Of a DNA stretch of 64,000 nt, positions 37,990-49,388 are shown one piece after another (the stretch's first letter is position 1; every line of letters begins with the position of its first letter). The notes beneath the pieces were generated by a model. The model was not told where the DNA came from. It was given only the letters and a program-made list of their open reading frames with translations, and ran no database searches. Both the position numbers and the translations under genes were made by a program. The DNA is from an uncultured bacterium (GTDB taxonomy: Bacteria; Acidobacteriota; Thermoanaerobaculia; Multivoradales; JAHZIX01), in contig CBDUPA010000011.1 in the NCBI GenBank assembly GCA_965368975.1, positions 160,001-224,000 on the forward strand. Direction: 5' to 3'.

Positions 37990-38178
37990 ATGATTCGGCG
38001 AAGTCGCAAGAAGCGCTTGAAGCTGCACCGGGAGATGCTCGGCTCTTTGGTGGAACAAGAGCTAGGCCAGGCGAAGGGTGGAAGTACCGTGCTTTGTACC
38101 CAAAGCGGTTCCTCCCAGGCCATCGAATCTTGTCCAGCCCTATTCTCGGGCTGTTGTCCCATTGCTGAGGGGCGTTAA
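37990..38178 (+). CDS. Precursor-like peptide P1: MIRRSRKKRLKLHREMLGSLVEQELGQAKGG|STVLCTQSGSSQAIESCPALFSGCCPIAEGR
   Basis: GGAGGA SD; conserved leader; double-Gly; Ser/Thr/Cys core. Confidence 0.85.
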   Translation: MIRRSRKKRLKLHREMLGSLVEQELGQAKGGSTVLCTQSGSSQAIESCPALFSGCCPIAEGR

Positions 38179-38224
38179 ATGCAAAAAAATCGTATTTATG
38201 CGCAATTACGGAAGGAAGTCGTAG

Positions 38225-38395
38225 ATGAAGCGCAAAGTAACCGAAAAGCGCACTTTGAGGTTGGTTCGTGAGACCCTCAAGGCACTCGAGAGCGCTGACT
38301 TGCCCAAGGTGCGTGGCGCTTACCACAGCTCACAGTTGTCTATCCCTACCATCGACGACGGTGACTCTTGTACTTGCTTCAGTCTGGGTATTTGA
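38225..38395 (+). CDS. Precursor-like peptide P2: MKRKVTEKRTLRLVRETLKALESADLPKVRGA|YHSSQLSIPTIDDGDSCTCFSLGI (not in ORF track)
   Basis: Manual translation, 56 aa; GGAAGG SD; same leader. Confidence 0.85.
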   Translation: MKRKVTEKRTLRLVRETLKALESADLPKVRGAYHSSQLSIPTIDDGDSCTCFSLGI

Positions 38396-38430
38396 AACCT
38401 GTTACGCACTATGCCCGAAGGCCGGCCGAC

Positions 38431-38563
38431 TCACCGCCAGTCTCCATGGACCTGGAACGCTGCCCAAAGCAAACTGCGTCCGCGACGCTTCCCCAGCGGT
38501 ACCACGCAGCAACTCAAATTTGTGCCTGGCGTAGGGCCGTGGCCCTGGGCAGTCCTGCTGTCC
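38431..38563 (-). pseudogene. Relic of the 3' end of a TPR-CHAT gene
   Basis: Aligns by eye to 42527-42658; with frameshifts reads AGLPRATALRQAQI/ELLRGTAGEASRTQFA/WAAFQVHGDWR*. Confidence 0.88.
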
Positions 38564-38624
38564 CCAAGAGACGCAAACGCAAGCGATGCCTGCCCCGTTT
38601 CTGTCCATAGCCTTAGAGGCCGGG

Positions 38625-38893
38625 GAGTATCTGGCCGCCAAGCCCGGTCCGATCATTGCTCAGGAGTACGTCTCCGGCCGCGATTCCTGGAACTGAACGC
38701 CACTACGTCCGAGTTGGCGGACATCCACCATCCGCAGAATTCGCAGTGGGAAGCGTACCGAGTGCTCTTCCGCCAGTGGCGGGTTGCCTTTGAGATTGTG
38801 TGGCAGAATCGGGAAATGGGCGTCGAGGTGATGTCCTGGGAGCGCCCCTGAAGATGGTGGCGCTGTACTTTCTGGGGCGGCAGTGTCACGAAA
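38625..38893 (+). pseudogene. Degraded duplicate of the 3' end of the hydrolase-DedA-ATP-grasp gene, with internal deletion
   Basis: Matches ~37253-37316 joined to ~37704-37913 (LELN...PQNSQWEAYRVLFRQWR; ends agtgtcacgaaa in both copies). Confidence 0.88.
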
Positions 38894-38980
38894 TGTCGAA
38901 TTTCCGCACTCCTCGGTTGAGCGAGCTTTGCACTTCGTGCCGGAGCGCAACTTCTATTGCTTCGCGGTTCTGGAGGAGCT

Positions 38981-39140
38981 ATGCGCAACCTGAAACGGCT
39001 TGAGCAGCGTCTTCACCTGAGCAAGGAAACCTTGAAAAGGCTAGAAGCCCCCGATCTCCAGTTGGCTGTAGGTGGCAGTGTCAACAAATAGTGGTGCTTG
39101 GGTTTCCTGCCCCTCGTGTCCCACTTCTGCCTTGATGTGA
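38981..39140 (+). pseudogene. Precursor-like peptide P3, frameshifted: MRNLKRLEQRLHLSKETLKRLEAPDLQLAVGG|SVNK* (stop 39091); removing one A gives core SVNNSGAWVSCPSCPTSALM
   Basis: GGAGGAG SD; exact LxLxKx5L leader; repaired core carries the family SCP motif. Confidence 0.75.
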
Positions 39141-39226
39141 AGTGAAGAAATTGAGGTGCTCCCGGCTTCTACAGTGCCGGTATCTTGGGCAACAAATGGC
39201 TGCCATCAACGAATAGGAAGTGAATC

Positions 39227-39394
39227 ATGAAAAAGAACAAGTTCAGCGAAAAACTCGTGTTGCACCGTGACACGCTAGTTCAACTAGAGAATGGGAGACT
39301 AGTTACGGCCGTGAAAGGCGGGGGAGAAGAGTCGACAATAACAAGGAGCGCTGGCACTATGTCGTGTACGTCTGTTTGTATTGGTGCTATTTAG
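39227..39394 (+). CDS. Precursor-like peptide P4: MKKNKFSEKLVLHRDTLVQLENGRLVTAVKGG|GEESTITRSAGTMSCTSVCIGAI (not in ORF track)
   Basis: Manual translation, 55 aa; AGGAAG SD; same leader. Confidence 0.85.
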   Translation: MKKNKFSEKLVLHRDTLVQLENGRLVTAVKGGGEESTITRSAGTMSCTSVCIGAI

Positions 39395-39422
39395 CTCGCG
39401 CTGGCGTGGCGAATATTCCTTT

Positions 39423-42395
39423 TTAAGCGTAGTTTCCGTAAAACAGAAATGCTCCCCATGCATAGGGGGCAGAGAGTTCTGGATCCCCGCTGCCTATCAT
39501 CTCGATCTGTACCTGTTGGAGAGCAAGGATCGGCGGTGTTCCCGAAGCGAGTTTTTTATAAAACCTTGTCATTATTACGGCCGTCGATCTGTCAGCAATC
39601 GGCCATAAGGAACCGATCACTGCGCGGGCACCCACTACCTGAAACGCTAGAGCTAGACTGAGGGGCCCGTCGCCTCGCATTTCTCTGCCTAGAGCACTTT
39701 CGCAAGATGACAGCACAACAAGGTCTGTTCCTTGCAGACGGGTCTCGCTGAGAATCTCCCTCATCTCAAGAATGCCGTTATCTTTGCCAACTTCGACTTG
39801 CTCGGGTAGTGAGAGTAAGAGCGCTGGATGCAGTGGCCATTGTGAATCCGATAACGTGTGAGTTGCAAAATGCAGATACCGAGTTCGAAGGGTACCCTTG
39901 GCACGCTCTTCGATGGCGTCAGGTCCAAAGAAAATGCGACTTCTAGAACCGAAGAGCGCTCCGACCTGTTCGACTTCTGCCTGACTAAATGGCAGTTGGC
40001 GCAGCTTGAAGCCGCGATTCAGGGCGGCAAATACTTGCCCGTTGTCCATTAGCTGACCGTCGGCGGACTCAAGATGGATGGGAAACGACGGATTGCCGAA
40101 TGCCGTAAACTCTACCGGTGGTAACTCTGATGAGCTTCTTGATCTCAGCTCTGAATAGGACGATCCAGACAGGCCGAAGAAAAGGGCAACTTTCTCGATC
40201 AGGTAGTGGTCGTCAGTGCGTAGAGTGGACCAAGGCAGGGAATGCAAAGCTCCGTCAGGGAGGATCAGCAGTCTTTCGAAATCGCTTAGTGAGTGCCGCA
40301 ACGCGGGTGGAAAGAGAGCGATGAAGAGGTCTCGACCAACGACGCGAAGTCTGTCGAGTTTCTGTTGCCACTGCGGATGTTGCGGGTGCGCGCTGAGTAT
40401 GAGAGATCGTATTTGTTGAACTTTTCTCTGTACTTCGCCTTGGTTGATTGGCAGTGAATAGGTTGCCAGTTCCTGTCTGTTGCCGAGAGTAAAGACGAAG
40501 GACTCTTGCTCCGCAACGAAGAATGAAACCAAGAGCGTCTCTTGGTCGAGGGAACTCTGCATATCGCTGACTTGCTTGCCTTGATCTTGGGCACTGCTAC
40601 GGGGGCTGAGTTGTAAGGGCCGTACAGTGAACTGGCGAAGAAGTTTCTCGTAATCAAGCTTTGCCTGGAATAGCTCATCCCTGAGAGACTGTTCTTGCTG
40701 CCCTTGGTTCTGAGTTCTACCGACTAGGAGTTCGAATCGAAGCGAGTTCAGTTGCTCTTCCAACTTGAGTTTCAGGTGCTGAACAGTGGCAGGAACATCC
40801 ATTAGCTCCTTTGAAGCTTCATGCTCTGCTCGCATGATTCGGAAGCCCTGGGCTCTAGATCGCTCCAAAGTCTCAAATGCTTTGGTTGGCTGCCCTCCCC
40901 GAATAAGGGCTAGAACCAGATGCTGATAATAGTCATGGTGCCATGAACGATAGTCGACCCTCGATTGCGCCAGATGAGAGATCTGATGCTCTAGTGTGTT
41001 AACTGCATCTTGTAGCCATCTCAAGCTAGCGGTAGGGTTTCCGCCGTTGGCCTCTAGGAGTCCTCGATCTCTTTGAAACTCTGCTAGCCACAAGGTTTCT
41101 GAGGCTAGCTCCTGCACGATCTCAATGCCACGATCAGAGGCTTTCCGGGCTTCGGTAAGTTCTCCAGATTCCCACAAAATCTTGGCGAGCTGATTTTCCG
41201 TCTCGGCGGTCCAATACGAGTTTCGACTTTCCTGAAGTCGGATCTCGCGAGCCTGAAGAATCAGGGCTCTTGCCATCTCCAAGTTACCTTGAGCTTGATG
41301 CAGTCGAGCCAGTAAGACGAGTGTGTTAGCAATACGCGGTGATTCTGTTGTACCTTCCGACCTTCTACTTAGAGCCAGTGATGCAGTCGCAAGGCGGATA
41401 CCTTCTTCGATAGTGTTGGTTAATAGACAGATTCTAGCGGAGCGCATTAGTAGCTCGGCTGTTCGGTGGCTTTCTGGGTGGTGTTGCTGCAGGATCCTTA
41501 GTGCAGTTGTGTAGTGTGACGAAGCTGAAACCGGCCTTCTTCGCCATTCGTCCAATTTTCCTAGTTGCCGGAAAGTCTCTGCAAGTAAGACTGGACGGGC
41601 GTTGCCCGCTTGAAAGTTACGAAGAGCCCTCTGAAGCCAATACTCGGCTCGGTCGTGCTCTGCTTGCATGCGAGCAGTGACGCCCAGTTGAAGGTAAGTA
41701 CCTCCGAGTAGATAACTCTTCGGTGCCCTAGTCTCAAGGATGTCTTGCGCATATTCTAGATATGTCTGTGACTCTTCTAATGCGAGTTCTTGTCCCAAGA
41801 TGAGTCCCAGGCAGCCGAGGGTGTAAGCTTTCTCAACGCTATCTACTTTGACCTGTTGAATGGACTGTAGTGCGCGCCGGCAGAGAGCTTCACCTTGATT
41901 CCAGTCTTCCTGCAGGAAGAGGATGATACCAAGTCGAAAGTATGCTCTTGATCTTAGTCTTGGTTCTTCTTGCCTCTCAGAGAGCAGCACAGCTTGCTCG
42001 TAGTACCAGCGTGCACCTGTGAAGTCATCGCGATCTTCTGCTAGGTTGCCGAGGGCAATTTGTACTTCCGCCTTCTCTGATGGGTAGACGGTCCAGTTTA
42101 GAGTCGTGCGAAGTACCCGCTCGGCCAGTTGATATTCACTTTCTGCATTCGTCCATTCTTCAGGGTGCAGTATTTCCTGTGCTTGGTTCCACAATGCTTG
42201 AGCCAGCGGTAGGCTAAAACTGGCTCGCGTATAGAGTGGAGACAGCTCCTGCCAAGGCACTACAGCTTCTGCTCCTTGTGCTGCTGTGAATCCCTGTGAT
42301 GTTCCTCGCTTCAGCAATAACGACAAAAAGAGGAGACAGATCAAGCCCAGGTCAGGGAACCTTGGGTGCTTGGACATCATGCAGGGCTGCTTCAT
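39423..42395 (-). CDS. TPR-CHAT (caspase-like) protein 1 with N-terminal hydrophobic segment
   Basis: TPR array; ERSRAQ; ILPDGALHSLPW; HFATHT and VLSSC (His/Cys dyad); SLWPI; WGAF. Confidence 0.92.
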   Translation of the reverse strand: MKQPCMMSKHPRFPDLGLICLLFLSLLLKRGTSQGFTAAQGAEAVVPWQELSPLYTRASFSLPLAQALWNQAQEILHPEEWTNAESEYQLAERVLRTTLNWTVYPSEKAEVQIALGNLAEDRDDFTGARWYYEQAVLLSERQEEPRLRSRAYFRLGIILFLQEDWNQGEALCRRALQSIQQVKVDSVEKAYTLGCLGLILGQELALEESQTYLEYAQDILETRAPKSYLLGGTYLQLGVTARMQAEHDRAEYWLQRALRNFQAGNARPVLLAETFRQLGKLDEWRRRPVSASSHYTTALRILQQHHPESHRTAELLMRSARICLLTNTIEEGIRLATASLALSRRSEGTTESPRIANTLVLLARLHQAQGNLEMARALILQAREIRLQESRNSYWTAETENQLAKILWESGELTEARKASDRGIEIVQELASETLWLAEFQRDRGLLEANGGNPTASLRWLQDAVNTLEHQISHLAQSRVDYRSWHHDYYQHLVLALIRGGQPTKAFETLERSRAQGFRIMRAEHEASKELMDVPATVQHLKLKLEEQLNSLRFELLVGRTQNQGQQEQSLRDELFQAKLDYEKLLRQFTVRPLQLSPRSSAQDQGKQVSDMQSSLDQETLLVSFFVAEQESFVFTLGNRQELATYSLPINQGEVQRKVQQIRSLILSAHPQHPQWQQKLDRLRVVGRDLFIALFPPALRHSLSDFERLLILPDGALHSLPWSTLRTDDHYLIEKVALFFGLSGSSYSELRSRSSSELPPVEFTAFGNPSFPIHLESADGQLMDNGQVFAALNRGFKLRQLPFSQAEVEQVGALFGSRSRIFFGPDAIEERAKGTLRTRYLHFATHTLSDSQWPLHPALLLSLPEQVEVGKDNGILEMREILSETRLQGTDLVVLSSCESALGREMRGDGPLSLALAFQVVGARAVIGSLWPIADRSTAVIMTRFYKKLASGTPPILALQQVQIEMIGSGDPELSAPYAWGAFLFYGNYA

Positions 42396-42526
42396 TCGTT
42401 TCCTAAACCGACACCGCTAGTCGTCGTAACCTGAAGCGACACGCCAGTGTGCCTTTCATTCCTAGAGATGGGCTAGGGCCGGGCGTGAGCAGTTGGCGAT
42501 AGTCGACGTGTTCAGACGGTGTCAGC

Positions 42527-45505
42527 TCACCGCCAGTCCCCATAAACCTGAAAGGCAGCCCAAGCAAACGGCGTCCGCGACGCTTCCCCAGCGTCGCCAC
42601 GCAGCAACTCGATCTGTGCCTGACGCAGAGCCTCGGCCTTGGGCAGCCCTGCGTCCAGGTGCTGGTAGAAGCGCCGCATCAGTTCTGCCGTCGAGTCGTC
42701 CTGCACGTTCCACAGGGATGCAACGACCGAGCGCGCGCCGGCGATGTGGAAGGCTCGTGTGAGCCCCATCATGCCTTCGCCGCTCAGCTCCTTGCCGAGG
42801 GCAGACTTACAGGACGACAGCACCACTAACTCGGTGCTCTTGAGCTGGATGCCCTCGAGGATTTCCCATACCTCCAGCAGGCCGTTCTCCTGCCCATCCT
42901 CTAACTGCTCCGGAATGCTCAGTGCCAGGGCAGAGTGCAGGGGCATGCGGGAATCGACGATGGCGTGCGTGGCGAAGTGGAGATAGCGTGCCTGTGTCGT
43001 CAGTTTGGCTTGCTCCTCGGTCGCTGCTGCACCGAGGTAGGCACGCGAGCGGCTGCCGAAGAGGCGGGAGATGCCTTCCACTTCCAGCTCACTGTAGGGC
43101 AACAGCTGCAGCGCGAAGCTGCGCTCGACCACGGAGCGCAGCTGAGGGTTGCGGAGGCTGTTGCTGTCGGTATCCATGAGCCGTTGTGGATACTCAGGAC
43201 CACCGAAAGCGGCCAGCATGACGGGAGTCGCTGTTGGACGATGGCGGTTCTTCAGCTGCGCGTAGGCGGAGGCGGACGGGGCGATGTGGAGCTGCTTGTC
43301 TTGGATCAGGAAGTGATCTTCCGAGGACTGCAGAGCTGACCAGGGGAGCTCGTGCAGCTGACCGTCGGGCACGATCAGGATGCGCCGCGCGGTATCGATA
43401 CGTGGCTGCAGTGGCCCGAGCAGGGCTTGATAGAGACGCAAAGCTTCCGGGCCCAGATTGCGCAGGGCCTGCTGCTGTCGTGGCATGCTTGTGCGGGCCT
43501 CGGAAATCTGCTTGTGGAAGGCGTCGACTCGATCTTCTATCTCCTCGGAACCTATCTCGAGGGTGTGGACGTCGAGACCTTCGTCTCGGCTGACGGAGAA
43601 GACGAGGGTTTTGTGCGTCAGCGTGCTGAAGGAGATCAGCAGAGTGCCTGGGTCCAGAGAGTGGCGCACCGCGGTCAGGTCGAGCACGGGAGCCTGAGTA
43701 TCCAGGATGGTCTGCTGCCGGTGTTCTCGAACCCGCCGCTGAAAGCTCTCGTACTCGAGCAGGGCGTCGACCGTCTCGTCTTCGTAGTGTGCGATGGCGT
43801 CCGTGTCGTTGCGCCGCTTGGCGTCCAGCAGGTCGTACTGGATCCGGTCGCGGTACTGCTGTAGCTCTTCCTTGCGTGCGTGTAGCGCGGGTGGCAGCCT
43901 GTCGCCGGAGACGGCTGCATGCTCGGCGACAATGGCCCGGAAGCTCTGTGCGAGCGAACGTTCGAGCGTCAGGAAAGCGCTCTCCTGCGCACCGAGTTCG
44001 AGCTGTGTCTCCAAGATGTGGTGGTAGACACTGTGGAACTCGGAGCGGAAGCCAGCCTGGATCTGGCGAGAGCCCCCCAGTTCGGCGGTCTGGATCTCCA
44101 GCATGTCCGCGGCTTCCTGCAGCCATTGCAGGCTGACTAGGGGCCGGCCGGCTTTGGCTTCCAACAGACCGCGTTCGGAGAGACCTTCGATCAACCAGAA
44201 GCTCGTGCGCCTGTCGCGGCGATAGTGGGCGAGTGCCTGATCCGAAGCTTGGCGGGCTGCCTCGAAGTTTCCAAGGTCCGCCTGCACGCGGGCAATGGCC
44301 CCTTGGGTGTACCCGATCCAGAAGTCGTCTGCATGCTCCCGCAGGACCTCCAGCGCCAAGCTGTACTCGGCGAGCGCGTCCCGCGGCTGCCCCTTCTGCT
44401 CGTAGTAGTTGCCGAGCAGGGCTCGGCTGTTGGCCGTCGCTCCGAGATCCCCGTCGACCCTGACCTGCTCCTCGCGCAGGCGCAGAGCTGCCTGTGCTTG
44501 CTGATGCCCCGTTTCGAAGTCGCCACTCTCTAGAGCCATCTTGCCGAGTCGTTCGTGCAAGGCTGCCAGTTGCGCCGTGCCCGCACGAGCCTGTTGATAG
44601 CTTTTCAGGGCTTGTTGAAAGTAGTCCGTTGCACTGTCGAAGTCACGCGCCCAATGTGCGTTTTTGCCGCGCTGAACCAGCGCGAAGGCACGATCCGGCA
44701 AGGGGGCCTGGTTGTCTTCGAAGATCTCGAGAGCACGTTCCAAGAGACGGTCCGCGGTCTCGTAGGCACGCTGCATGCGGTAGACGACACCCAGCTGAAT
44801 GTAGGAATGGGCCAGTGCTCTGCCGTCGCCCAGGCGTTGCTGAAGCTTGATTGCGGACTCCAGCAGTGCCCGCGCCTCCTCGAGTTCGGGCTTCTGACCG
44901 AGAATCAACCCAAGGCAGTTCAGCGTTTCCGCCTCCTCGAGGCCGCCGGCTGGTTGCAGCGTCCGCTGGGTGGCCAGTGCCCTGCGACACAGGAGTTCTC
45001 CTTCCTGCCACTTGCCGACCGCGAAGCGGACTGATCCCTGGCGGGCCCAGGCCTGGGCCAGCAGCCACGGATCGTCAGCGTCATTGAGGAGGCTCACCGC
45101 AGTGTCGTAGTGGTCAGCTGCGGGACCGAAGCGCCGGTTCTTCTGCTGAACTCGCCCGAGTGTGAGGTGGAGGAGGGCCCGGGTCTGGGGAGCACTGCTA
45201 TAGCGGAGAGCGGCCAACAGCGCCTGTTCTACCGCTGGATCCGCAGTGCCCGGAGGCAAGGTCTCGAGCTGCTCGGCATGCTGCCAGAGAGCTGCGGCGA
45301 TCCGCGAATCAAAACGGCTGTCCGGTTGGGAGGCTGCCGTAATGGAGCTGGTAGAAACATTTGGTATTGTGCATGCGTCAAATTGCCTGCTCGCCAAGCC
45401 AGAGGCCAGGAGCAGTGCTGTCGAAAGGAGGGTCCAAACCGTAAGGCGTCTGGCAATCTGAAAGGAGTTTGCAATGCGCAAGCGAAGTTCCCGTTCTAAG
45501 TCCAA
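42527..45505 (-). CDS. TPR-CHAT (caspase-like) protein 2 with N-terminal hydrophobic segment
   Basis: TPR array; IVPDGQLHELPW; HFATHA and VLSSC; SLWNV; WAAF; TTG start with GGAG 7 nt upstream. Confidence 0.92.
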   Translation of the reverse strand: MDLERELRLRIANSFQIARRLTVWTLLSTALLLASGLASRQFDACTIPNVSTSSITAASQPDSRFDSRIAAALWQHAEQLETLPPGTADPAVEQALLAALRYSSAPQTRALLHLTLGRVQQKNRRFGPAADHYDTAVSLLNDADDPWLLAQAWARQGSVRFAVGKWQEGELLCRRALATQRTLQPAGGLEEAETLNCLGLILGQKPELEEARALLESAIKLQQRLGDGRALAHSYIQLGVVYRMQRAYETADRLLERALEIFEDNQAPLPDRAFALVQRGKNAHWARDFDSATDYFQQALKSYQQARAGTAQLAALHERLGKMALESGDFETGHQQAQAALRLREEQVRVDGDLGATANSRALLGNYYEQKGQPRDALAEYSLALEVLREHADDFWIGYTQGAIARVQADLGNFEAARQASDQALAHYRRDRRTSFWLIEGLSERGLLEAKAGRPLVSLQWLQEAADMLEIQTAELGGSRQIQAGFRSEFHSVYHHILETQLELGAQESAFLTLERSLAQSFRAIVAEHAAVSGDRLPPALHARKEELQQYRDRIQYDLLDAKRRNDTDAIAHYEDETVDALLEYESFQRRVREHRQQTILDTQAPVLDLTAVRHSLDPGTLLISFSTLTHKTLVFSVSRDEGLDVHTLEIGSEEIEDRVDAFHKQISEARTSMPRQQQALRNLGPEALRLYQALLGPLQPRIDTARRILIVPDGQLHELPWSALQSSEDHFLIQDKQLHIAPSASAYAQLKNRHRPTATPVMLAAFGGPEYPQRLMDTDSNSLRNPQLRSVVERSFALQLLPYSELEVEGISRLFGSRSRAYLGAAATEEQAKLTTQARYLHFATHAIVDSRMPLHSALALSIPEQLEDGQENGLLEVWEILEGIQLKSTELVVLSSCKSALGKELSGEGMMGLTRAFHIAGARSVVASLWNVQDDSTAELMRRFYQHLDAGLPKAEALRQAQIELLRGDAGEASRTPFAWAAFQVYGDWR

Positions 45506-45650
45506 GTTACAACTCCATCGAGAATGGCTGACGCTTCTAGACGCTCAGCAGCTGACTGCGGCTACGGCTGCAGCTACGCAGGATCCGTCTTCCACGGCGA
45601 TCTTTTCCTGTCCGCAATGTGGGATGAATACATTTCCCATCGACGTCTAA
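45474..45650 (+). CDS. Precursor-like peptide P5: MRKRSSRSKSKLQLHREWLTLLDAQQLTAATAA|ATQDPSSTAIFSCPQCGMNTFPIDV (not in ORF track; leader/core junction inferred)
   Basis: Manual translation, 58 aa; AAAGGAG SD at 45461-45467; LQLHRE leader; SCPQC core. Confidence 0.82.
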   Translation: MRKRSSRSKSKLQLHREWLTLLDAQQLTAATAAATQDPSSTAIFSCPQCGMNTFPIDV

Positions 45651-45779
45651 TCGGTGCGTCGGCCGCTGGTTTTCGTGTTCGGGCCAGTGGCTGCCTTACA
45701 AGTAGACGCGCAATCTGGGGCAGGAAGTGTCAGACAAGGAGCACAAACATATGGATGCATGTATCCAAGAGGTGTCACA

Positions 45780-45944
45780 ATGCGAAGATTCACGAAGAAG
45801 CGCTATTCGATTCGACTGCACCGAGAGACCTTGGTGCGGCTCGAGGACGCTCACCTGAAGCAGGTTGCCGCGGCAAGTATCAAGGCATCGTGTCCGCTGA
45901 CCGACACGGGAGCCCCTGCGGTCAGCCCGGGGAGCTGCTGCTAG
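45780..45944 (+). CDS. Precursor-like peptide P6: MRRFTKKRYSIRLHRETLVRLEDAHLKQVAAA|SIKASCPLTDTGAPAVSPGSCC
   Basis: GAGGTG SD; likely start is internal to track ORF 45654..45944. Confidence 0.85.
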   Translation: MRRFTKKRYSIRLHRETLVRLEDAHLKQVAAASIKASCPLTDTGAPAVSPGSCC

Positions 45945-46106: not shown

Positions 46107-48743
46107 TTAGCGTTCCTGTTCCGGGCTCTGGGGCTCCAGCTTCTGTAAGCGCTGCCAGGCTCTTCGAGTCTTGGGAGCGTCGGGCCCCAGAGCCTGGAGC
46201 AGGCTTTCGTAGCCTTGTCGGAGCAACAGGGTCGCGGCTTCGGTGTCGCCCAGCGCCAGCAAACAAGCTCCCAGGACGCTATCGACTTCCGCCAATGACA
46301 CCTGAGGGTGTTTGTAGACCTCTTCCAGGGTCTGCCTGGCCAGCCGCGCTTGCTGTAGGGCCTCGTCCAATCTTCCTTGCGCGAGCAAGATTTCGGCATA
46401 GTTGCGCAGGAATGCGCCAAGGTTCGGTCTGCCGATTCTCTGTTGGGACCGCTGAATCCGCAGAGCCTCCTCGAGGTGAGCCTGCGCACCGGCCAGATCC
46501 TGTCTCAGGAAGAGGACGTAGCCCAAGTTGTTGTGTGCGGGGGCCAGTTTCCTATGGAGCGGTTGCTTCTCGTAGACCTTCTGTCGCAGTTCGAGGCTCC
46601 TTCGCAGTTCTTCCTCTGCCGCTGCCAGCCGTCCCTGGTATTGCAGGATCCGACCTAGATTGCTGTGCGTCGTGGCAAGCGCCGTCGGGGAAACCTGGAG
46701 GTCGATTCTCGTCTCGAGCGCTTTGCGGCCCAGGGCCTCGGCCTCCTCGAGCTGGCCGAGTTCGAGGAGCAAGGTAGAGAGGTTGTGCCGAACAGTCGCG
46801 ATGAACTCGGCATCCACGTCGGCTTCTGCGAGTCCGAATTCTAGGGCTTTGCGAAAATTGACTTCAGCCTTGCTCGGCGGCCCAATACGGCGGCGGATAC
46901 CGCCGAGGTGGTTGAAGGCTTCGGCGAACTGCGCGCGACTTCCGTGATGCTTCTCGAGCAGTTCGATGGCTTCGAGGATGTACGGTTCGCCGGCTTTGTG
47001 GTCACCGAAGTAACTCAGGTTGCCTCCCAGGTTGAGCAGCGTTTCGGCCAGCTGGTGCGGCTGGTCCAGCTGACGTCCCAGGTTGACGGCCTCGCGGTAG
47101 AGAGGCAGGACTTCTTCGGCGCCCCGGCCCAGGTCTTTGAGAAGTCTGCCAACTTCGTCGAGCAGGTGAACGCGGATCTCCGGGTCCTCGCCCAGCATTT
47201 CTGGGAGTTCGTCCAGGACCTGCTGGATCAGCTCACCGACGGTGAGTCCTGGGTCGCCGGTGTCCGGGCTGGCGCCTTCAAGGATCCGCGTGGTGATGTT
47301 CAGGGCGCCCCTGGCGACCCGCTGTTCCGTTTGCGCTTGCACGGCAGCCTTGCGGGCTCGCTGTCGCAAGACTTCCGCGTAGACGCTGAAGCTGGTGAGC
47401 AGGAAGATGAAGGTTGCCGCTGCGGCCACAGCCAGGGCGTTTCTGCGCACAAACTTCCAGGCTCTGTAGATGGGCGTGCTCTGGTGCGCCCTGACCGGCA
47501 GGCCTTGGAGGTAGTTCTGCACATCCTCGCTCAGCTGCTCGACGGAGGCGTAGCGCCGGACGGGCTTCTTCTCTAGCGCCATGAGCACGATGCTGTCGAG
47601 ATCGCCACTCAGCCGCCGCCGCAGGCTGGGGGCGTCGAGGTCACGGCTGGTGCTGACCGACGCGGGATCGAGATGCAGCACCGAGCCGTCCGCACGCTCG
47701 CGTGTCTCGTCACGATCGATCGCCTGGCTCGGAGGTTCCGGTTCCTCGTTGCACAGGCGCTCGAGCTTGGCGGGCAGAGACGTGGTGGGACGGTGTGGAC
47801 GGTGTCCGGAGAGCAGCTCGTAGAGCAAGACGCCAAGGGCGTAGACATCGCTCGCCGTGGTCACCGCCTCACCCCGCAGCTGTTCGGGACTGGCGTAGTC
47901 GAGGGTCAGGGGGGCGGGACCGCCGGTATGCAGAGCGGTCGGAGCCATGGTCCGGTCGGGTACGTCGCCGGCCAGCAACTTGGCGACCCCGAAGTCGAGG
48001 AGTTTCGGTTCGCCCTCGGCCGTGATCAGGATATTGCTCGGCTTGAGGTCGCGGTGCAGAACCAGGCTCTGGTGGAAAAAGTGAACGGCGGAGCAGATCT
48101 TGCGGAACAGGTGCAGCCGCTGCGTGATGCTCAGACGGTGGCGGTCGCAGTACTGGTCTATCGGTTCGCCCTCGATATGTTCCATGACCAGGTAGGGACG
48201 GCCGTCCTCGGTGCTGCCACCGTCGAGCAGGCGGGCGATGTTCGGGTGGTTGAGCTGGGCCAGGATCCGCCGCTCCTGCTGGAAACGCAGCACGGTCTGT
48301 TGGGCGCTGGCGCCGTGCAGGAGCTTCAGGGCTCCCTTCTGTATGAAATCCTCATGGATCCGCTCGGCGAGGTAGACCGTCCCCATTCCCCCGCGCCCCA
48401 ATTCGTGTAGGACGCGCCAGCCCGCGACTTGGGTTCCGGAGGCCAGTTCCGGCACCAGGGCGCCTCCCTCGAGGCTCACCTCCCCGCGAGGCGCGCCGGC
48501 GACCGCCGGCTGTTCCAAGAACTCGCCCATGTCACCGTGGGAAGCGACCAGCGACGAGACTTCACGGAACAGGTCTTCATCTTCGGCGCAGGCGCTGCGC
48601 AGCCAGCCGAGCCGTTGGTTGGTGTCGACATCGAGCGCTCGGTTGAGTAGGTCCTCAATGTGCAGCCAGCGTTCCGGCGTCATCGGGGTCGAACCGGTTC
48701 CAGCGTCTGGTGTGGGAGCTGGATTGTCGCATTCCGGGGGCAT
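46107..48743 (-). CDS. Membrane Ser/Thr protein kinase with C-terminal TPR domain
   Basis: GRGGMGTVY, HRDLKPSN, DFG, YASPEQ, one TM, TPRs. Confidence 0.95.
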   Translation of the reverse strand: MPPECDNPAPTPDAGTGSTPMTPERWLHIEDLLNRALDVDTNQRLGWLRSACAEDEDLFREVSSLVASHGDMGEFLEQPAVAGAPRGEVSLEGGALVPELASGTQVAGWRVLHELGRGGMGTVYLAERIHEDFIQKGALKLLHGASAQQTVLRFQQERRILAQLNHPNIARLLDGGSTEDGRPYLVMEHIEGEPIDQYCDRHRLSITQRLHLFRKICSAVHFFHQSLVLHRDLKPSNILITAEGEPKLLDFGVAKLLAGDVPDRTMAPTALHTGGPAPLTLDYASPEQLRGEAVTTASDVYALGVLLYELLSGHRPHRPTTSLPAKLERLCNEEPEPPSQAIDRDETRERADGSVLHLDPASVSTSRDLDAPSLRRRLSGDLDSIVLMALEKKPVRRYASVEQLSEDVQNYLQGLPVRAHQSTPIYRAWKFVRRNALAVAAAATFIFLLTSFSVYAEVLRQRARKAAVQAQTEQRVARGALNITTRILEGASPDTGDPGLTVGELIQQVLDELPEMLGEDPEIRVHLLDEVGRLLKDLGRGAEEVLPLYREAVNLGRQLDQPHQLAETLLNLGGNLSYFGDHKAGEPYILEAIELLEKHHGSRAQFAEAFNHLGGIRRRIGPPSKAEVNFRKALEFGLAEADVDAEFIATVRHNLSTLLLELGQLEEAEALGRKALETRIDLQVSPTALATTHSNLGRILQYQGRLAAAEEELRRSLELRQKVYEKQPLHRKLAPAHNNLGYVLFLRQDLAGAQAHLEEALRIQRSQQRIGRPNLGAFLRNYAEILLAQGRLDEALQQARLARQTLEEVYKHPQVSLAEVDSVLGACLLALGDTEAATLLLRQGYESLLQALGPDAPKTRRAWQRLQKLEPQSPEQER

Positions 48744-48755
48744 CGCGGAGCCTCC

Positions 48756-49388
48756 TCAGGACGGCTGCAGCGCACGGTGCAGCCAGCTCTTGGCTGCCCG
48801 CCACTTGTAGCGGACGGTCGAGGTGGAGATATTCAGTACGGTAGCGATCTCGTCATGGGTGAGGCCGGCGAAAAAACGCATCTCGACGATTCGACTGCCT
48901 TCGGGGTTGAAGCGTGCTAGGTCTTCGAGCGCGACGTCGAGGCGCAGTAGCTCGTGGTCGCTCATCTCGGCTTGCAGCAAGACGCCATCGTCAGCCAAGG
49001 CGTCCAGCGAAATCGGCACGTTGTCACCGCCGCGCTTGACGGCGGTGCGCCGGCGTGCGTGGTCGACCAGGATGCGCCGCATCTGCCGTGCCGCAAAGCC
49101 GAAGAATTGGGCACGGTCATGCCACTGTACGCGGCGCCGGTTCATCAGGTCGAGGAAGAGCTCGTTGACCACCGCAGTCGGTTGCAGGGTATGGCTCTGG
49201 TTCTCGCGCACGAAGTACCCACGCGCGATCCGCTGCAGCTGGTCGTAAACCAGTGGCGTCAACCGCTCCAGGGCGTCGGGTTTGCCGTCGCTCCAGGCGT
49301 GTAGCAGGACGGTGATGTCCCCGCGTGGCGAACTGCCGGTTCTTTCCGGTGTGGCGTCGCGGGATGGAGCTGGGGTGTCGTCGTCCAT
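48756..49388 (-). CDS. ECF sigma factor, TIGR02999/ECF43-like (kinase-associated)
   Basis: ITVLLHAW, LVYDQL, HTLQPTAVVNE, MRRILVDHAR, VEMRFFAGLT. Confidence 0.92.
   Translation of the reverse strand: MDDDTPAPSRDATPERTGSSPRGDITVLLHAWSDGKPDALERLTPLVYDQLQRIARGYFVRENQSHTLQPTAVVNELFLDLMNRRRVQWHDRAQFFGFAARQMRRILVDHARRRTAVKRGGDNVPISLDALADDGVLLQAEMSDHELLRLDVALEDLARFNPEGSRIVEMRFFAGLTHDEIATVLNISTSTVRYKWRAAKSWLHRALQPS

Follow-up and report, generated by a model that had tools for sequence, protein, structure and literature searches.

Six candidate class I lanthipeptide precursors at a rearranged locus belong to a dispersed family of about 55 members

Results

Organization of the locus

The window is a stretch of 64,000 nucleotides, and its positions 37990–45944 contain six small ORFs (P1–P6), all on the plus strand. 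ORF finding reproduces the six leader cores and the places given for them in a preliminary description of this DNA. All six have the K/R-rich N-terminus described, together with a leader of the motif LxLx[R/K][E/D]xL and a Cys/Ser/Thr-rich core. The longer motif L-x-L-x-[K/R]-x5-L follows the basic N-terminus in 6/6 ORFs, with Ile at the first position in P6. A cut-off of 60 aa leaves out P2–P5, in agreement with the four hidden ORFs described.

P1 (37990–38178, plus strand) encodes 62 aa. Its leader ends in GG, and its core, STVLCTQSGSSQAIESCPALFSGCCPIAEGR, contains 4 Cys and 8 Ser/Thr. P2 (38225–38395, plus strand) encodes 56 aa, with a leader ending in GA and a core of 2 Cys and 7 Ser/Thr. 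P3 (38981–39140, plus strand) is disrupted by a 1-nt frameshift. Its leader (38981–39079) is intact and ends in GG, a stop follows four residues later (in-frame ORF 38981–39091), and the Cys/Ser/Thr-rich core, with 2 Cys, resumes in the +1 frame at 39072–39140, reading VAVSTNSGAWVSCPSCPTSALM*. Either P3 is a pseudogene with a frameshift or the break is an artefact of the assembly. The ORF finder places its start at 38957, and the family alignment prefers the ATG at 38981. P4 (39227–39394, plus strand; 55 aa) has a leader ending in KGG and a core with 2 Cys and 8 Ser/Thr; a terminator-like hairpin lies after it at 39399–39411.

P5 (45474–45650, plus strand; 58 aa) has AA instead of GG where its leader ends, and its core contains 2 Cys and 6 Ser/Thr. 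A hairpin is present at its 3′ end (45649–45671). P6 (45780–45944, plus strand; 54 aa) also has a leader ending in AA, and its core contains 3 Cys and 6 Ser/Thr, with a terminal CC. For P6, the ORF finder gives a 96-aa form from GTG 45654, and the family alignment prefers ATG 45780. The Cys counts of the cores (4, 2, 2, 2, 2, and 3 for P1–P6) match the two to four described, P3 being counted in the +1 frame. The Cys and Ser/Thr contents of five cores (2–4 and 6–8, respectively) are suited to thioether rings; that of P3 is so only in the +1 frame.

A Shine-Dalgarno site had been assigned to every gene. A strict site (GGAG/GAGG within 20 nt of the start) is indeed present in P1 (AGGAGG), P3, P5, and P6 (GAGG), whereas P2 and P4 have only the weaker AGGAAG. 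The public protein collection lacks an exact match for four of the six; the P2 sequence is there in identical form, and P2 and P3 are singletons.

Two large genes on the minus strand encode TPR-CHAT proteins. CHAT1 (39423–42395; 990 aa; Pfam CHAT, 8e-62, plus TPR) has a hydrophobic N-terminus and is convergent on P4. CHAT2 (42527–45505; 992 aa; Pfam CHAT, 6e-75) is 36% identical to CHAT1 by BLASTP and divergent from P5. Because the listed TTG start of CHAT2 overlaps P5, its start is probably further in. A CHAT remnant comprising the last ~30 codons (38402–38520, minus strand) is convergent on P2 and aligns with the C-terminus of CHAT2 (BLASTP, 19/39 identities, E = 9e-7). Direct repeats at 38430–38515 and 42526–42610 are 84–90% identical. 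Another remnant (38617–38893, plus strand) is a piece of the upstream hydrolase-DedA-ATP-grasp gene, namely its 3′ end shortened by a deletion inside it (BLASTP, 37/54 identities, E = 2e-20), and the repeats D1, D3, and D5 are 77–81% identical with a spacing of ~981 nt. A low-GC block (38900–42500) holds P3, P4, and CHAT1, with a GC content of 0.50–0.53 compared with 0.60–0.66 in the flanks. The locus, which bears the two gene remnants and the low-GC block, is rearranged.

A leader family at 36 loci of the genome

A profile built from the six retrieves 43 ORFs at E < 0.1 and 53 after iteration. A genome search with the leader profile yields 55 members, and the family occupies 36 loci. The family is thus far larger than the six members described, with ~47 further leader copies. 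Members are cleanly set apart from noise in the profile search. Run against the genome's 133,041 six-frame ORFs, the family profile detects P1–P6 with E-values of 3.9e-10 to 6.7e-9 (P1, 6.1e-10; P2, 2.2e-9; P3, 6.7e-9; P4, 4.8e-9; P5, 6.3e-10; P6, 3.9e-10), and the next-best ORF of the window has an E-value of 200. On these E-values, a chance origin of the six matches is excluded.

The family genes carry translation signals. The start codon is ATG in 50/52 genes, and a strict Shine-Dalgarno site precedes 51/53, compared with 11.8% of random ATGs; by inspection, the two exceptions are P2 and P4. The leaders are conserved at the protein level. Synonymous codons vary at conserved leader residues (Leu: CTC 21, CTG 14, TTG 9; Arg: CGC 19, CGT 14, CGG 8, CGA 4; Glu: GAA 25, GAG 23). 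Between the six leaders and the rest of the family, pS is 0.73 and pN is 0.47; among the six, pS is saturated (0.72–0.84) while pN is 0.39–0.49. The six are more divergent than the other members, with a leader identity to the rest of 0.40, compared with 0.47 among the rest.

GG or GA occupies the cleavage position in 44/53 members. The cores contain 11.8% Cys, 11.2% Thr, and 8.4% Ser, whereas Cys makes up 0.1% of leader residues. Cys is present in 52/53 cores, eight of which have a single Cys, and Ser plus Thr equal or exceed Cys in 51/52. Even Cys numbers are found in 25 cores and odd ones in 27, with no bias toward even numbers.

Match to a known lanthipeptide leader

The NCBIfam model NF038153 (lant_leader_L1a) describes a class I lanthipeptide leader and has a curated cut-off of 22 bits. 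Five of the six match it at E < 1, all below the cut-off (P1, 14.4 bits; P3, 13.4; P4, 19.4, the best of the six; P5, 13.1; P6, 12.1), and P2 gives no match at E ≤ 1. Among the 47 other paralogues, 27 match at E ≤ 0.01 and 14 reach the cut-off. The paralogues that pass join the six in one profile, with the six at E ~1e-9 to 1e-10. We identify the family as the class I lanthipeptide leader already known as NF038153, of which the six are new members. The NCBI name "class I lanthipeptide" is attached to 3/38 database relatives. The profile built here also detects precursors located beside LanB in a Pedobacter locus (one) and a Saprospiraceae locus (four).

The preliminary description named LxLxKx5L as a class I lanthipeptide leader motif and GG/GA as the C39 cleavage site. 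Both are borne out by Walker et al. 2020 (PMC7268733), who report this motif from Bacteroidetes class I LanAs and state that many such leaders end in Gly-Gly, often with a C39 protease in the cluster.

Other leader types were rejected. TIGR04149, the model for rSAM-modified GG-leader RiPPs (cut-off 25 bits), matches none of the six and gives 16.6 bits for one paralogue. The Nif11 and nitrile-hydratase leaders of prochlorosin-type class II precursors are likewise unmatched among the six in Pfam and NCBIfam.

Candidate enzymes and their co-occurrence with the leader

No LanB, LanC, or PCAT (C39 exporter) gene is located inside the window; the nearest are on another contig. Searching the genome for these enzymes, as had been proposed, finds all of them. 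The sole full LanB of the genome is on contig C13, together with two LanCs and beside two family members; it is on a different contig from the six and at least 87 kb away. LanA–LanC pairs without LanB are present at C1:561252 and C13:186160, and three PCATs are encoded with HlyD. The C13 LanB is 30–36% identical to the LanBs of the Pedobacter and Saprospiraceae loci, and its best relatives point to an Acidobacteriota host.

The proposed search for LanM also finds one gene, at C18:296–3793. We rejected LanM as the partner enzyme, as no homologue was found in two family-bearing genomes, G011 (38 family copies) and G007 (7 copies).

In 175 other genomes, the leader is found only together with this type of LanB. 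In the order sample, the leader is present in 5/30 genomes, which are exactly the five with a LanB homologue of at least 48% identity. In the phylum sample, it is present in 4/150 (one of them, G172, an unpublished genome), all four of which have a LanB homologue; six genomes have LanB without the leader, and 140 have neither. Overall, 9/9 leader-bearing genomes have this LanB type, and the leader occurs in 0/160 genomes without a LanB match. The leader family is absent from same-family genomes (0/5). Expansions of similar size (55, 38, and 31 copies) recur in three or more lineages of a single order.

The predicted complex of LanB residues 1–830 with P1 residues 1–34 scores 0.51 (runs, 0.49, 0.51, and 0.54), and the best of three controls scores 0.16. 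The runs share at least 71% of contacts, with a partner pLDDT of at least 49. The mark for such scores is reached by 58/80 solved complexes and 2/110 mismatched pairs, and with scores up to 0.60 it is reached by only 7 of the 80 solved complexes and by both mismatched pairs. A solved complex of like kind is NisB with the nisin leader. Because that complex is similar, the passing of the mark by the present prediction may reflect likeness only. The prediction gives weak support to the class I explanation.

Discussion

With a probability of roughly 70%, we consider P1, P2, P4, P5, and P6 to be translated class I LanA precursors and P3 a frameshifted copy; the six belong to a family of ~55 at 36 loci. 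Most likely, the six are orphan precursors modified in trans. The prochlorosin-like arrangement proposed in the preliminary description fits the LanB, LanC, and PCATs of the genome, the extra leader copies (two of which adjoin LanB/LanC), and the co-occurrence with LanB. The leader of 30–33 residues (MKKxxRKLxLxRETLxxL...GG) would dock on the LanB dehydratase encoded on the other contig. LanB would glutamylate core Ser/Thr and then eliminate the glutamate, producing dehydro-residues, to which one of the LanC cyclases would add core Cys to form thioether rings. Cleavage behind GG/GA and export of a possibly bioactive product would fall to a C39-peptidase ABC exporter and its HlyD partner. Least certain is the processing of P5 and P6, whose leaders carry AA at the cleavage site. 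Points against this reading are the NF038153 scores of the six, which stay under the cut-off, with P2 unmatched, the divergent leaders, the lack of LanB, LanC, and PCAT genes in the window, the AA of P5 and P6, the broken P3, the rearranged locus, the absence of the family from the same-family genomes (0/5), and the singleton status of P2 and P3.

Alternatively, the peptides may be exported double-glycine-leader peptides that are cut by a PCAT and stay undehydrated, with disulfides or free thiols, as Cys-rich bacteriocin-like, signalling, or metal-binding peptides. The three PCAT-HlyD exporters are in line with such peptides, as are the distance of the six from any LanB/LanC and the great excess of precursors over enzymes. 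GG-ending leaders of this type are also found on unmodified bacteriocins (PMC7268733). We nevertheless regard this explanation, which takes in the unmodified disulfide or metal-binding peptides of the preliminary description, as unlikely. Among the genomes searched, the family occurs only alongside this LanB type, the Cys numbers are split nearly equally between even and odd, eight cores have a single Cys, Ser/Thr account for 20% of core residues, and no bacteriocin family in Pfam or NCBIfam matches any of the six.

The six could also be, for the most part, decaying copies in a rearranged island that are neither made nor processed any longer. Several observations point this way: all six score under the NF038153 cut-off, P3 is broken, GG is lost in P5 and P6, the Shine-Dalgarno sites of P2 and P4 are weak, and gene remnants are interspersed among the six. 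We find decay improbable all the same, since five ORFs still begin with ATG and stay open, preserving the complete LxLx[RK][ED]xL motif as well as a Cys/Ser/Thr-rich core up to the stop, their leaders have saturated pS and a lower pN, and their family-profile E-values lie inside the range of other members.

Finally, the peptides could form a locus-specific module with the neighbouring exported, caspase-like TPR-CHAT proteins as processing proteases or receptors. In its favour, P1–P2 lie by the CHAT remnant, P3–P4 by CHAT1 in one common low-GC block, and P5–P6 by CHAT2, and in G011 a 1173-aa CHAT ORF has a family peptide ~800 nt upstream in divergent orientation. We regard such a module as very improbable: the three units could be copies of a single event, only 1/34 other peptide loci of this genome is near CHAT (C18:53976, with a CHAT-FGE fusion at a distance of 3 kb), peptide and CHAT match share a contig in 0/31 cases in G030, 0/7 in G007, 0/3 in G020, and 0/1 in G010, CHAT is abundant (23 matches here, 9–31 in relatives), and PADLOC returns nothing specific.

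The class I precursors proposed here resemble the pinensin-type LxLxKx5L precursors of Bacteroidota (Walker et al. 2020, PMC7268733) in leader architecture and motif, in the GG/GA end of most members (AA in P5 and P6), and in the Cys/Ser/Thr-rich cores. They differ in that Arg mostly replaces Lys (RETL), that the host is probably an acidobacterium, that the six are unclustered with LanB, LanC, or PCAT, and that the genome has ~55 copies at 36 loci. The chemistry proposed, in which LanB glutamylates a leader-bearing precursor and eliminates the glutamate before LanC cyclises the product, is that of the nisin type (NisA/NisB/NisC/NisT/NisP). In contrast to the nisin type, which has an FNLD box leader removed by a subtilisin-like LanP and keeps precursor and enzymes in one operon, the leader here has an LxLxRETL motif and, in most members, a GG or GA end, and the C39 exporter is the likely protease. 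As with prochlorosins and SyncA, many scattered precursors share a conserved leader, have hypervariable cores, and face one candidate trans-acting synthetase set per genome. Those systems are class II, however, with Nif11/nitrile-hydratase leaders and a LanM (ProcM/SyncM) serving tens of precursors, where here LanB and LanC would act.

Descriptions of class I lanthipeptide enzymes usually involve a single clustered substrate or a few, and the well-known many-substrate enzymes ProcM and SyncM are class II. In literature searches covering the main texts of open papers, we found no account of an expansion of the present kind for class I or for Acidobacteriota. It is conceivable, at slightly less than even odds, that a single LanB and a few LanCs mature at least 50 dispersed hypervariable precursors, as a class I parallel to the prochlorosins, with the six of the window as divergent members travelling with TPR-CHAT genes. 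Some 55 very different cores for one LanB would be demanding for a class I enzyme.

The six themselves are of a known kind, and the interest lies in the at least 50 dispersed copies per LanB. Genome mining bound to clusters, together with the curated leader model, misses most precursors of such genomes. If ~55 scattered precursors of one leader type are indeed matched by a single LanB, peptide engineering would gain from this genome a LanB/LanC pair with natural tolerance for substrates, along with a large untried set of ring topologies.

Six small genes with a common leader

Six small ORFs (P1–P6) are called on the plus strand of the window at 37990–45944. Their products are alignable over the first ~33 residues, in which an N-terminal Met is followed by a Lys/Arg run and the motif L-x-L-x-[R/K]-[E/D]-x-L-x-x-L, and a second conserved Leu stands ~8 residues past the motif. 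Past the leader the products are unalignable, yet Cys/Ser/Thr-rich throughout. The family alignment sets the starts of P3 and P6 at 38981 and 45780, which differ from the first start codons listed by the ORF finder. P3 stops four residues after its GG. Its +1 frame reads VAVSTNSGAWVSCPSCPTSALM from 39072 to a stop codon and is closed just upstream (39069–39071). P1–P6 are real genes and P3 is broken; in this draft genome of 59 contigs, an assembly error may be the alternative to a true break.

The preliminary description spoke of a family of six and called for a search for further copies. A profile of the six leaders was run on 133,041 stop-to-stop frames of at least 25 aa from the whole genome. 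The first pass gives 43 ORFs at E < 0.1, and two iterations give 53 at E ≤ 0.01, spread over 36 loci. The scores are bimodal: 50 matches reach E ≤ 1e-6, and relaxing the threshold to 0.01 and then to 1 raises the count only to 53 and 56. P1–P6 score E = 3.9e-10 to 6.7e-9, and the next-best ORF of the window scores E = 200. A genome search with an alignment of 52 members gives 55 matches, so that the family numbers 53–55 rather than six. P1–P6 do not form a local clade, as their similarity to one another is no higher than to the rest of the family.

No Pfam model matches P1–P6. The top match for all five of the six that match any model is NCBIfam NF038153 ('lant_leader_L1a, class I lanthipeptide'), at 12.1–19.4 bits, all below the 22-bit cut-off; P2 has no match. 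Among 47 paralogues elsewhere in the genome, 27 match this model at E ≤ 0.01 and 14 exceed the cut-off. The family profile also finds LanB-adjacent peptides in three loci: one peptide in a Pedobacter locus, four in a Saprospiraceae locus (with a C39-peptidase ABC exporter, PCAT), and one in an Acidobacteria MAG. P1–P6 are divergent members of the known leader family of class I lanthipeptides. This family has many members, and annotation pipelines already recognise it: a collection of 5.8 billion proteins holds 38 relatives at E ≤ 1e-5, three of which, from Acidobacteriota or Thermoanaerobaculia MAGs, are named 'class I lanthipeptide' by NCBI, and HMMER, run in full on 1.84 billion representatives, returns 13,249 proteins at E ≤ 0.001. 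Passages of Walker et al. 2020 (PMC7268733) describe LxLxKx5L in place of the FxLD box in some class I LanAs of Bacteroidetes, a Gly-Gly end on many such leaders, and a C39 protease often within the cluster. The two points that the preliminary description gave as established, LxLxKx5L as a class I leader motif and GG/GA as the C39 site, stand because they agree with these passages.

Translation signals, conservation, and core composition

The start codon is ATG in 50 of 52 motif-bearing members. GGAG or GAGG lies 3–20 nt upstream in 51 of 53 members, compared with 11.8% of random ATGs of the genome. By inspection, the two exceptions are P2 and P4. A Shine-Dalgarno site had been claimed for each of the six genes; the claim holds for P1, P3, P5, and P6, whereas P2 and P4 carry AGGAAG only. 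A k-mer search for a promoter motif shared by the 200-nt upstream regions of the 53 genes returns the Shine-Dalgarno site only, and a sigma-70 scan gives 0 sites in both sub-loci of P1–P6.

Many different synonymous codons encode the conserved residues of the leader: CTC 21, CTG 14, TTG 9, and CTA 3 for the first Leu; CGC 19, CGT 14, CGG 8, and CGA 4 for Arg; GAA 25 and GAG 23 for Glu; ACC 32, ACG 13, ACT 3, and ACA 2 for Thr. Therefore, the peptide is conserved, not the DNA. Between the leaders of the six and those of the other members, pS is saturated at 0.73 and pN is held at 0.47.

Leaders end in GG (30), GA (14), AA (3, including P5 and P6), AG (2), or otherwise (4). Cys, Thr, and Ser make up 11.8, 11.2, and 8.4% of core residues, and Cys makes up 0.1% of leader residues. 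All cores contain Cys (52 of 53) except that of the truncated P3. Disulfide pairing is the alternative to thioether chemistry. An even number of Cys is found in 25 cores and an odd number in 27, eight cores carry just one Cys, and Ser plus Thr equal or exceed Cys in 51 of 52; this pattern fits thioethers better than disulfides. In two paralogue pairs (G000:C21:93195–93924 and G000:C7:124161–124772; G000, source genome), the C-terminal core halves are identical and the leaders differ, which is opposite to the usual case, where the leader is conserved and the core varies.

Modification and export genes elsewhere in the genome

The only full-length LanB of the genome (1159 aa, Lant_dehydr_N plus Lant_dehydr_C) is encoded on another contig (C13:48593–52069). 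It adjoins two family precursors with 7-Cys cores (C13:47892–48437) and two LanC genes (C13:45159–47667). No transporter or protease gene lies beside this class I lanthipeptide cluster (G000:C13:45159–52069; L073 5160–12070). In two mini-operons (G000:C1:561252–562875, L025; G000:C13:186160–187701, L043), LanC directly follows a family precursor and no LanB is nearby, which implies a LanB acting at a distance. The genome also encodes three C39-ABC exporters; all of them have HlyD-type partners, and an outer-membrane factor accompanies one.

Other candidate enzymes are one LanM, two kinase-LanC fusions, two HopA1-LanC genes with APH-type kinases, and further LanB-like genes on contigs C9 and C12; no family precursor lies beside any of them. 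One HopA1-like-LanC fusion (G000:C11:154106–156449, L068) lies outside the window next to its APH-type kinase gene, 43 kb upstream of P1; the LANC_like match of this fusion spans only the first ~48 model positions. The other adjoins its kinase gene at G000:C1:735541–738955 (L070). The pairing looks like split kinase/lyase/cyclase lanthipeptide machinery, recalling class IV/V.

Among 30 relatives, the leader family is found in 0/5 same-family and 5/25 same-order genomes, at 7, 1, 38, 3, and 31 copies; the same five, and no others, carry a homologue of the C13 LanB at 48–55% identity. Two other relatives have LanB homologues of only 38 and 32% identity and no leaders. In a phylum sample of 150 further genomes at least 90% complete, the leader occurs in four at E ≤ 1e-7 (1, 2, 6, and 1 copies), or in 3/149 without the unpublished genome G172, and all four have a LanB homologue 2–8 kb from a leader gene. 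Six others have a LanB homologue without leaders, and 140 have neither. The relatives are not independent; the nine genomes with the leader represent at least seven families. No LanM homologue was found in the same-order genome with 38 copies (G011) or in G007. The leader family thus travels with LanB.

We also folded LanB residues 1–830 with P1 residues 1–34, both supplied as alignments. The model scores 0.51 (runs, 0.49, 0.51, and 0.54) against 0.16 for the best of three controls; of 80 solved complexes, 58 reach the mark, as do 2 of 110 mismatches; among scores at ≤ 0.60, only 7 of the 80 solved complexes and both mismatches reach it. The runs share at least 71% of contacts, and the partner pLDDT is at least 49. 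Because a LanB–leader complex has already been solved, the model suggests at most a likeness to that complex, as weak support for docking of the P1 leader.

In line with one of the two readings in the preliminary description, P1–P6 are most likely processed in trans by LanB, LanC, and PCAT genes encoded elsewhere. This reading draws on the genes found in the genome, the precursor–LanC pairs without LanB, and the co-occurrence of the family with LanB.

Neighbors of the peptide genes

Scanning 184 ORFs around the 34 other loci gives unrelated housekeeping genes (e.g., rpoC, IleRS, HisRS, and GroES/EL), NRPS genes, and transporters. The precursors are true orphans. In the window, each peptide pair adjoins a CHAT gene or remnant, including two exported TPR-CHAT proteins with 36% mutual identity, which is suggestive of a link to the peptides. 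However, CHAT genes are common (23 matches in the source genome, 9–31 in relatives), and only one further instance of the pairing was seen, in G011, with none in G030, G007, G020, or G010. PADLOC returns nothing specific for the CHAT proteins. The neighboring 879-aa hydrolase-DedA-ATP-grasp fusion is rejected as a partner, as its orthologues are present in genomes that gave no match to the peptide family. The Ser/Thr kinase-TPR gene is rejected since it is paired with an ECF sigma factor (PF07638) gene directly upstream (the two together at 46110–49388).

Large FGE-sulfatase (formylglycine-generating-enzyme-like) proteins are encoded a few kb from three other peptide loci (L038:1185–4517, L041:6457–8973, and L047:7342–9384); one has no other recognised domain, one has a Ser/Thr kinase, and one has a CHAT domain. 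Possible modifying or processing genes are an MbnB/TglH/ChrH-family gene 2 kb from the C27 peptide, a radical SAM gene adjoining the C10:200822 peptide, and S9 prolyl oligopeptidases adjoining two peptide loci (L053:1137–2174; L037:3745–4758; L022:1498–3669; L031:2542–4956).

History of the locus

Two remnants lie between P2 and P3, namely the final ~30 codons of a CHAT gene (38402–38520) and a copy, with an internal deletion, of the 3′ end of the ATP-grasp gene (38617–38893). The 146-aa and 84-aa frames called there are pseudogene debris. The block 38900–42500 (P3, P4, and the first CHAT gene) has 50–53% GC, against 60–66% around it, with sharp edges, and is probably foreign or recombination-acquired DNA. 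The repeated flanks are ~80% identical, while alignment of the enclosed peptide genes is near random and their synonymous sites are saturated, so a simple tandem duplication of ~981 nt is rejected as the source of P1/P3 and P2/P4. As the six are also not mutually closer, the locus seems to have gone through repeated recombination or acquisition at a single site rather than a recent tandem duplication of the peptide genes. No tRNA genes or Rfam families are found in the window. Orthologues of the ATP-grasp fusion (53–57% identity) occur in 4/5 same-family genomes; synteny there gives no match downstream of this gene that would mark the island borders. The kinase-TPR is useless as a synteny marker, as its paralogues number up to 70 per genome in relatives.

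Scale of the expansion

The copies are scattered in other genomes of the order too, with 38 on at least 28 contigs in G011 and 31 on 21 contigs in G030; in both, the LanB homologue is on a contig without any family member. No description of such an expansion was found in the openly accessible article texts searched. What is unusual is the scale: for a single matching LanB there are ~55 dispersed precursors, and similar expansions occur in two other genomes of the same order.
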